Shown here piece by piece: positions 10,428 to 10,760 of a DNA stretch of 11,630 nt; within the stretch, counting starts at the first letter, position 1, and each line of letters starts with the position of its first letter. The notes beneath the pieces were generated by a model that worked only from the letters and a program-made list of their open reading frames with translations, did not search any database and was not told where the DNA came from. The position numbers were made by a program, and so were the translations under genes. Origin of the DNA: a virus (Duplodnaviria > Heunggongvirae > Uroviricota > Caudoviricetes); the IMG/VR virus record IMGVR_UViG_2534681832_000020. One strand, 5' to 3'.

Positions 10428-10760
10428 TCAGGGTGCAGAAGGACTAAAGATAAACGTTTTCTTCACGCCTTTACGCGGCCTGTCCTTCTCAAATCGCCAT
10501 TTTGCCATCGCCTTTACAACCTGCTCATCAAACAGATGGTGCGGCTCTGAACGGATAAACTCAATTCGGGTGACAGTACCATCAGCACCAATATCAAACT
10601 TCACATCAACCCGTCCCTTTATATAATTTGCCGCTGCATAGGCCGGATATTGTGGTAATGCCTTAACCAACTGTCGGGGCATATCTGTTTTATGTTGCGT
10701 ACAGCCCATAACCAGAGAAGACAACAAAATAATTAACGGAAGATTTCTTTTCATTTTCAT
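10428..10760 (-). CDS. Lipoprotein with TonB C-terminal-like domain (moron gene)
   Basis: The ORF has a lipoprotein signal peptide (MKMKRNLPLIILLSSLVMG|C) with Thr at +2. The mature part (LPQYPAYAAANYIKGRVDVKFDIGADGTVTRIEFIRSEPHHLFDEQVVKAMAKWRFE) matches the TonB C-terminal domain pattern. The start is ambiguous among GTG 10769, ATG 10760 and ATG 10754. The gene and its flanks look more AT-rich than the structural genes. Confidence 0.7.
   Translation of the reverse strand: MKMKRNLPLIILLSSLVMGCTQHKTDMPRQLVKALPQYPAYAAANYIKGRVDVKFDIGADGTVTRIEFIRSEPHHLFDEQVVKAMAKWRFEKDRPRKGVKKTFIFSPSAP

Follow-up and report, generated by a model that had tools for sequence, protein, structure and literature searches.

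A phage-borne lipoprotein with a TonB C-terminal domain at the lysis-to-packaging junction of lambdoid prophages and its tentative role as a TonB-box decoy

The closest described counterparts of the gene analyzed here are small lipoproteins of phages and engineered fragments of TonB. Cor (phages phi80, N15, HK022, and mEp167) and Llp (phage T5) are small phage outer-membrane lipoproteins that act on FhuA from the periplasmic side; they share a common fold of their own with a disulfide bond, and Llp acts allosterically on FhuA alone in a TonB-independent manner (10.64898/2026.03.26.714494). The Bor/Iss lipoproteins of lambda and phage 21 are encoded as cargo in the region between Rz and cos. 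A precedent of another kind is provided by engineered periplasmic fragments of TonB, exported C-terminal domains (CTDs) without energy coupling that are reported to behave in a dominant-negative manner (Howard et al. 2001, J Bacteriol 183:5885, as cited in PMC9841981). Here, we analyzed an 11,630-nt stretch of DNA from a virus of the Caudoviricetes (IMG/VR record IMGVR_UViG_2534681832_000020; this whole stretch is referred to as the window), focusing on a gene on its minus strand near position 10,600 that encodes a predicted lipoprotein carrying a complete TonB CTD (the TonB_C lipoprotein).

The TonB_C lipoprotein showed no relation to Cor or Llp in sequence or in fold, although the outcome would be analogous if, as proposed below, it acts as a decoy for the TonB boxes of outer-membrane transporters; unlike Llp, a protein that binds TonB boxes should affect many transporters. 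The Bor family is also unrelated to it, but both are lipoprotein cargo of the Rz-to-cos region and their genes lie side by side in phage 21, with the TonB_C gene on the strand of the late genes. By comparison, bor is encoded on the other strand and is expressed on its own in lysogens. The engineered TonB fragments, in the account given in PMC9841981, were soluble, overproduced, and of native sequence, whereas the window protein is natural, diverged, and predicted to be lipid-anchored.

In the program-made list of open reading frames (ORFs), the gene appeared as a 110-aa ORF (MKMKRNLP...) at 10428..10760 on the minus strand. This ORF, which a preliminary description of the window had already reported, was supported by our analysis, but the ATG at 10754 (108 aa, MKRNLP...) is more likely to be the start than the ATG at 10760. 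It was favored because a GGGA motif lies 6 nt upstream and because both RefSeq and the curated annotation of phage 21 use the same start; in addition, the phage 21 annotation marks a ribosome-binding site at the position equivalent to this GGGA. The alternative starts are the ATG at 10760, which gives 110 aa, and a GTG at 10769, which gives 113 aa. The window protein is identical to RefSeq WP_000828070.1, named 'TonB family protein'. The features of the gene are as follows.

10428..10754, minus strand: coding sequence of the TonB_C lipoprotein, 108 aa plus stop, from the ORF list and from Pfam, NCBIfam, and PHROG matches.
10764-10761, minus strand: Shine-Dalgarno-like GGGA 5' of the ATG at 10754, read from the sequence.
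10701..10754, minus strand: signal peptide with lipobox, MKRNLPLIILLSSLVMG followed by the Cys, read from the sequence; homologues keep the Cys and the lipobox.
10428..10679, minus strand: TonB CTD, residues ~26-108 of the 108-aa protein, including the YP motif and strand beta3.

Profile search and structure prediction both identified the TonB CTD that the preliminary description had proposed. Pfam PF03544 (TonB_C) matched at an E-value of 5.5e-15 with 56 bits against a gathering cut-off of 24.6, and TIGR01352 matched with 56.5 bits against a cut-off of 27.1; in the Pfam search at E up to 1, TonB_C and TonB_2 were the sole families matched. When the protein was compared with the PDB by phmmer, the TonB CTDs of Escherichia coli and Salmonella were recovered in gapless alignments at E ~1e-16, and BLASTP against E. 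coli TonB gave 31 identities over 78 positions (40%), also gapless, in which TonB residues 153-230 correspond to residues 28-105 of the 110-aa form. An AlphaFold2 model made from seven homologues had a mean predicted local distance difference test score (pLDDT) of 83.7, with values >93 across the domain. Foldseek matched this model to 1u07_A, 2gsk_B, and 2grx_C with a probability of 1.00, a root-mean-square deviation (rmsd) of 0.8-1.1 A, and target TM-scores of 0.85-0.91; for 2gsk chain B, which is TonB bound to BtuB, and 2grx chain C, which is TonB bound to FhuA, the rmsd was 1.0-1.1 A. A fold search of BFVD returned no viral structure at E <=0.001.

The resemblance to the CTD of E. coli TonB (~150-239; 1u07, 1xx3, 2gsk, and 2grx) extends to the beta-alpha-beta fold, the YP motif, the core aromatic residues, and beta3. 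With TonB positions taken as the position in the 110-aa form plus 125, the retained residues are Y163/P164 (Y38/P39), F180 (F55), F202 (F77), W213 (W88), and F230 (F105), and the position of TonB Y215 is occupied by an aromatic residue, F90. The protein also has strand beta3, at residues 96-106 of the 110-aa form, and only four residues (PSAP) come after it. In contrast to E. coli TonB, the window protein lacks the C-terminal 8-9 residues, the alignment stopping at TonB F230, and belongs to a separate clade. It also differs at Q160, R166, and E203-E205: Q160 is replaced by L35 (Y in the phage 21 allele), R166 by Y41, which is invariant in the close family, and E203-R204-E205 by D-E-Q, with D-E or D-x across the family.

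The N-terminus was assessed by a pattern check for a positive n-region, a hydrophobic core, and a lipobox of the form [LVI..][ASTVIM..][GAS]C near residues 15-25. It begins with M-K-R-N (K2, R3), continues with a 12-residue hydrophobic core, and ends with L-V-M-G-C18-T19, in agreement with the standard lipobox pattern. Among the aligned family members, 12 of 13 have the lipobox Cys; the lipoboxes of the homologues vary (AVGC, SVGC, LSAC, LMGC, LLGC, LVGC, and LAAC), and their residue at +2, which is Thr in the window protein, is Thr, Ser, or Ala, and never Asp. The pattern, together with the conservation of the Cys in homologues, thus agreed with the lipoprotein signal (lipobox VMGC, Thr at +2) of the preliminary description, and Cys18 is predicted to be the lipidated first residue of the mature protein. 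According to the +2 rule, lipoproteins with a residue other than Asp at this position undergo Lol-dependent sorting to the outer membrane; with Thr at +2, the TonB_C lipoprotein would be expected to take this route.

The architecture of the protein is not that of a TonB energy transducer. A predicted cleavable lipoprotein signal stands in place of the inner-membrane anchor, seven residues separate Cys18 from the domain, and the 108-aa protein has no proline-rich segment, its alignment with TonB being limited to 153-230. Among the NCBIfam TonB equivalogs, the best match was NF008084 with 73 bits against a cut-off of 315, and all matches covered the C-terminal part only. Because it has neither an inner-membrane anchor nor a proline-rich spacer, the TonB_C lipoprotein cannot couple to ExbBD or transduce energy. 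When the two E. coli alleles of the gene described below were compared by the Nei-Gojobori method, the ratio of nonsynonymous to synonymous substitutions (dN/dS) was 0.12, with dN 0.19 and a dS of ~1.5 that is near saturation, which indicated that the protein is under purifying selection and is not a tonB fragment. We therefore ruled out a truncated or 'partial' tonB pseudogene, as in old EDL933-style annotation, given this ratio, the own signal peptide, and a length of 108 aa that is the full length of the family.

As suggested in the preliminary description, the gene may be explained as encoding a decoy that captures TonB boxes; this is the best supported of the readings considered here, and we assign it a probability of about 0.35. 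The predicted location of the small lipoprotein is the inner leaflet of the outer membrane, where the linker of ~7 residues would keep a complete TonB CTD near the periplasmic face of that membrane. The exposed beta3 edge would then pair by beta-strand addition with the TonB boxes of FhuA, FepA, CirA, BtuB, and similar transporters, and this competition would keep the real TonB off TonB-dependent transporters. As a consequence, the entry of heterologous TonB-dependent phages, group B colicins, and microcins would be dampened, at some cost in siderophore and B12 uptake; its transcription would come at minimum from the late lysis transcript, on which the gene is the last. In TonB itself, beta3 of the CTD forms an interprotein sheet with the TonB box, and TonB boxes are reported to reach 20-30 A into the periplasm upon ligand binding (Braun review), a distance that a short outer-membrane tether could cover. 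As cited in PMC9841981, overproduced periplasmic TonB fragments are reported to inhibit TonB-dependent iron import and transport through FhuA and FecA (Howard 2001), and a pentapeptide of the TonB box is reported to inhibit colicin killing and phi80 infection (Tuckman and Osburne 1992). The fold match to TonB chains crystallized on BtuB and FhuA, the lipobox, and the purifying selection also speak for a decoy, as do the conserved slot, the wide distribution, and the low GC content described below. In a broader form of the proposal, the protein would be a natural dominant-negative regulator, which would serve prophages as a broad-spectrum shield against TonB-dependent phages, group B colicins, microcins, and sideromycins, while its chromosomal homologues would be endogenous brakes; we regard this broader form as rather unlikely.

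In a blastn search of 5426 complete E. coli genomes, 1616 (about 30%) carried the gene. The window-type allele occurred in ~415 E. coli genomes, including enterohemorrhagic E. coli (EHEC) O157 and the enteropathogenic E. coli (EPEC) strain E2348/69, and a second allele, with 73.7% DNA and 71% protein identity to it, occurred in ~1200 genomes. The gene is 100% identical in E. coli O157:H7 strains EDL933 and 86-24, and the second allele is identical in phage 21, which was isolated in the 1950s, and in a prophage of sequence type 131 (ST131). The public names are all generic ('TonB family protein', 'TonB C-terminal domain protein', and 'partial tonB-like membrane protein'). The novelty implied in the preliminary description was overstated, as the gene is annotated already in this share of the complete E. 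coli genomes and in phage 21; neither the gene nor its domain is new, and it is the clade of lipoproteins with TonB_C, together with the decoy hypothesis, that appears to be undescribed in the literature searched. In five prophage lineages, the distant ones at 40-49% identity, the gene lies directly after the spanin gene or genes and before the packaging genes, with a spacer of 130-350 nt between the spanins and the TonB_C gene in every lineage. The copies outside the window are as follows.

Phage 21 copy: between bor and cos.
ST131 lambda-like prophage copy: with a terminase of the Nu1/A type.
Klebsiella phage ST13-OXA48phi12.4 copy: 40% identity.
Sodalis prophage copy: 49% identity.
Salmonella prophage copy: 45% identity, in the order DUF2514, TonB_C, HNH, terminase.

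As these phages do not share one type of head and terminase module, the gene moves with the junction between lysis and packaging genes and not with one phage lineage. Several copies of the phage 21 type in public assemblies (P0012, P0013, P0018, P0019, and P0021) have C-termini that are frameshifted or replaced after about residue 90, with loss of beta3; these appear to be decaying genes or assembly errors. In phage 21 (OL657228.1, 21967-24502), the sitBCD genes, which encode an iron/manganese ATP-binding cassette (ABC) transporter for TonB-independent uptake, are present as cargo after the tail fiber genes. An association between TonB_C and iron cargo was considered and rejected, as sit genes are absent from the ST131 prophage that carries the same TonB_C allele and there is no general pairing.

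Homologues are also found on bacterial chromosomes as 'TonB family protein' lipoproteins of Serratia, Raoultella, Klebsiella, Erwinia, Rahnella, and Gibbsiella. These have the same length of ~110 aa and the same combination of lipobox and TonB_C at 33-49% identity, but they lie in non-phage loci; they are equally uncharacterized.

Serratia grimesii chromosomal homologue: between a ycgN-like gene and dsbB, nhaB, and fadR.
Raoultella/Klebsiella chromosomal homologue: beside lacZ, lacI-like, and DUF1440 genes.
Erwinia typographi chromosomal homologue: beside panE and ABC permease genes.

In a neighbor-joining tree of the domain, the short lipoproteins from phages and chromosomes formed one clade, and the true enterobacterial TonB CTDs formed another. 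The family carries the signature P-x-Y-P-x-Y-A-x-A-N ... S-E-P-x-H-L-F-D-D, compared with YPARAQAL ... MFERE in TonB. Because both the clade and the signature differ from those of TonB, phages probably took up a lipoprotein gene already present in cells and did not generate it by truncation of tonB. A DUF1440 (YagU-like) gene lies directly 3' of the chromosomal TonB_C gene in Raoultella/Klebsiella (8738-9312), and Klebsiella phage ST13-OXA48phi12.4 also has a DUF1440 gene (1277-1903), a few kb 5' of its TonB_C copy; it is possible that this shared neighbor is a trace of the source from which the gene was acquired. A further protein, P0152, is 152 aa long and has an LAGC lipobox and a long linker; its C-terminal domain falls among the true TonB CTDs and not in the clade of short lipoproteins, and from this grouping lipoprotein-TonB_C fusions seem to have arisen more than once.

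The gene content of the window is that of a lambdoid prophage late region in which the packaging and head module is HK97-like. Downstream of the TonB_C gene on the minus strand, the order is HNH endonuclease, small and large terminase subunits (TerS and TerL), a prohead protease-capsid fusion, and portal. The features immediately surrounding the gene are as follows.

11093..11584, minus strand: Rz i-spanin (PF03245, E 6.9e-50) with the embedded Rz1 o-spanin at 11155-11340 (PF06085, E 1.7e-21).
10755..11092, minus strand: 338-nt spacer from the Rz stop to the TonB_C gene, 77% identical to the upstream region in phage 21.
10036..10296, plus strand: YlcI/YnfO (DUF3950) gene, convergent with the TonB_C gene and within the same low-GC patch, from PF13132 and RefSeq annotation.

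The position after Rz and Rz1 and before HNH, TerS, and TerL was confirmed, as was the AT-rich patch noted in the preliminary description: the GC content is 0.41-0.45 across 10150-10900 compared with ~0.55 on either side. This low GC supports foreign cargo, and 'moron' is a fair label for the composition and position of the gene. The structural reading of the locus, which combines a lipoprotein signal, a complete TonB CTD, a place in the slot between lysis and packaging genes, and low-GC cargo, is right. The occupants that had been attributed to this slot were correct in part: bor is found there in phage 21, lom is not, as it lies after gpJ, and cor was named inaccurately. The cor gene is not known to occupy the slot between spanin and packaging genes. 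Within the spacer, the non-coding segment 10870-11092 (minus strand), just 3' of Rz, is ~85% identical to phage 21, which is above the identity of the TonB_C gene itself (73.7%), and RefSeq annotates no ORF over this segment. No Rfam family was matched in the 338-nt spacer at E up to 1, and a structured RNA was dropped as a candidate on this empty result and a folding z-score of -1.64.

No intrinsic terminator was found anywhere in 10000-11630, and hence none lies between Rz and the TonB_C gene. Q-antiterminated late transcription should therefore run through the gene, and read-through from the late operon is likely. By eye only, the following candidate, which a consensus scan did not call, could be recognized upstream.

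10776..10817, minus strand: candidate weak promoter with a poor -35, TTGATG (10817-10812), a 19-nt spacer, and the extended -10 TGTTAGAAT (10795-10787).

A 7-1-7 palindrome, GAATAAG-A-CTTATTC (10790-10776), overlaps this -10-like motif. In phage 21, the -10-like motif is retained as TGTCAGAAT and the second arm of the palindrome is deleted, which indicated that the palindrome is not a conserved operator. A Fur box or another known operator at this site was dropped, with ~7/19 matches to the Fur consensus by eye and the arm missing in phage 21. The copies of Salmonella, Sodalis, and Klebsiella have weak promoter-like sites 15-35 nt 5' of the start, with site counts at shuffle level throughout, and a good terminator lies 20 nt past the stop in Sodalis. 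Low-level expression of the TonB_C gene in lysogens may occur. Inside the gene, an antisense sigma-70-like site is present at 10600-10627 on the plus strand (TTCACA-16-TATAAT, 11/12 consensus), and the phage 21 allele has an equivalent site at matching codons, TTAACC-16-TATAAT preceded by a TG (3161-3134, minus strand), which would point to bor. The antisense site is possibly due to coding constraint because it overlaps the conserved peptide A-N-Y-I-K.

Several points weigh against the proposal that the protein is a decoy for TonB boxes. The N-terminus of the TonB CTD normally faces away from the outer membrane, and a seven-residue tether is perhaps sterically awkward. The family forms its own clade with its own substitutions at the receptor-contact positions Q160, R166, and E203-E205, which may tell against an interaction of the TonB type, and for the chromosomal homologues a constitutive antagonist of TonB would be costly. 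TonB-dependent transporters outnumber TonB (PMC9841981), and thus a TonB-box decoy would need a high copy number. A consensus scan found no sigma-70 promoter on the coding strand upstream of the gene, so that the promoter of its own claimed in the preliminary description was not borne out. No family of PADLOC-DB was matched at E up to 1, and the literature searched, including a 2025 evolutionary survey of TonB and TolA, contained no experiment on a phage or lipoprotein TonB domain. Finally, exclusion of a FhuA-using phage of the carrier's own kind is unlikely, as the C-terminus of J in the carrier prophage is lambda-like (~52% identical to lambda J, full length, whereas the FhuA-type mEp/HK phages match over the first third only). 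Exclusion, if any, would accordingly be aimed at other phages and not at the carrier's own kind.

These points raise the question of whether another function could account for the same features. The domain might be a general envelope interaction module with a different partner, such as peptidoglycan, Lpp/OmpA, or a periplasmic protein bound by beta-strand addition, in which case phages would have borrowed a housekeeping or envelope-stability role in a Bor-like manner, with no specific effect on TonB-dependent uptake. The housekeeping neighbors of the chromosomal homologues in Serratia, Raoultella/Klebsiella, and Erwinia are consistent with such a role, as are the separate clade with a signature (YP-YA-AN; LFDD) unlike TonB at the receptor-contact positions and the slot shared in phage 21 with bor, a known conversion lipoprotein; moreover, the TonB_C fold is not confined to TonB but is found in many other architectures, among them proteins in which TonB_C stretches are repeated 3-5 times. 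However, none of the results indicated a partner, the nearest relatives outside the family in sequence and structure are enterobacterial TonB CTDs (40% identity), and the strand that pairs with the TonB box is intact, and we consider this explanation slightly less likely than a decoy. A variant in which the interaction is with TonB itself seems improbable. Here, the tethered domain would pair with the CTD of the scarce cellular TonB and hold it unproductively at the outer membrane, producing the phenotypes of a decoy with far fewer copies. Such a trap would profit from the fact that TonB is limiting relative to its transporters (PMC9841981). TonB CTDs also crystallize as dimers (1u07, 1ihr, and 1qxx among the matches), but the window protein is without the last 8-9 residues of TonB after beta3. 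In TonB, these last residues contribute to the strand-exchanged dimers.

A role in lysis, as an accessory or spanin-type outer-membrane lipoprotein that aids or times the disruption of the outer membrane or the wall, was suggested by a full-length match to phrog_1267 ('Rz-like spanin', category lysis, E 1.9e-42). The other PHROG match was phrog_34172, and no Cor or Llp family was matched. In the E. coli, Salmonella, Klebsiella, and Sodalis prophages, the gene always follows the spanin genes directly and in the same orientation, and the lack of a terminator after Rz would fit a lysis function as well. Nevertheless, a complete Rz/Rz1 pair is already present in the window, and the protein, a globular TonB_C domain, resembles neither a short proline-rich o-spanin nor a u-spanin, as it has no C-terminal membrane helix; in addition, the spacer separates the gene from the spanins in every lineage, and no lysis genes lie near the chromosomal homologues. 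On this evidence, we regard a lysis accessory as very unlikely, and the identity as a spanin given by the PHROG label was ruled out, since Rz and Rz1 are both present and the protein is globular. The assignment to the family phrog_1267 is right and its label is probably wrong: the members of phrog_1267 are TonB_C lipoproteins that adjoin true spanins, and the label thus looks transferred from position and lipoprotein signal.

Two other features of the window were observed away from the TonB_C gene. At 2851-3384, downstream of the portal gene, the ORFs 2469-3335 and 3277-3609 contain a 162-bp tandem repeat (3.3 copies, 93% matches) that encodes repeated 54-aa units (...PADGKSLTPDDVRPMLEQMVKEAVSHIPVPRDGRDYDPEVLQKAVNDAVANIP...); a related genome annotates the repeat region as part of a 'frameshifted portal protein'. 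The protease-capsid fusion at 5179-7116 (minus strand) is a single 645-aa ORF in which a prohead serine protease (Peptidase_S78) is joined to an HK97-type major capsid protein (Phage_capsid).

If the TonB_C lipoprotein does act as a decoy, it would represent a new exclusion mechanism that targets the energy-coupling motif shared by a whole class of receptors and not one receptor. Such a mechanism would reside in prophages that are very common in pathogenic E. coli (EHEC O157, EPEC, ST131, and avian pathogenic E. coli), and also in prophages of Salmonella, Klebsiella, and Sodalis, and it would affect susceptibility to TonB-dependent therapeutic phages, competition by colicins and microcins in the gut, and iron acquisition, as well as the uptake of siderophore-conjugated antibiotics (cefiderocol-type drugs and albomycin). 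Even if the decoy proposal is wrong, the analysis defines an uncharacterized family under purifying selection, separates it from true TonB, and flags a probable PHROG mislabel that is likely to spread.

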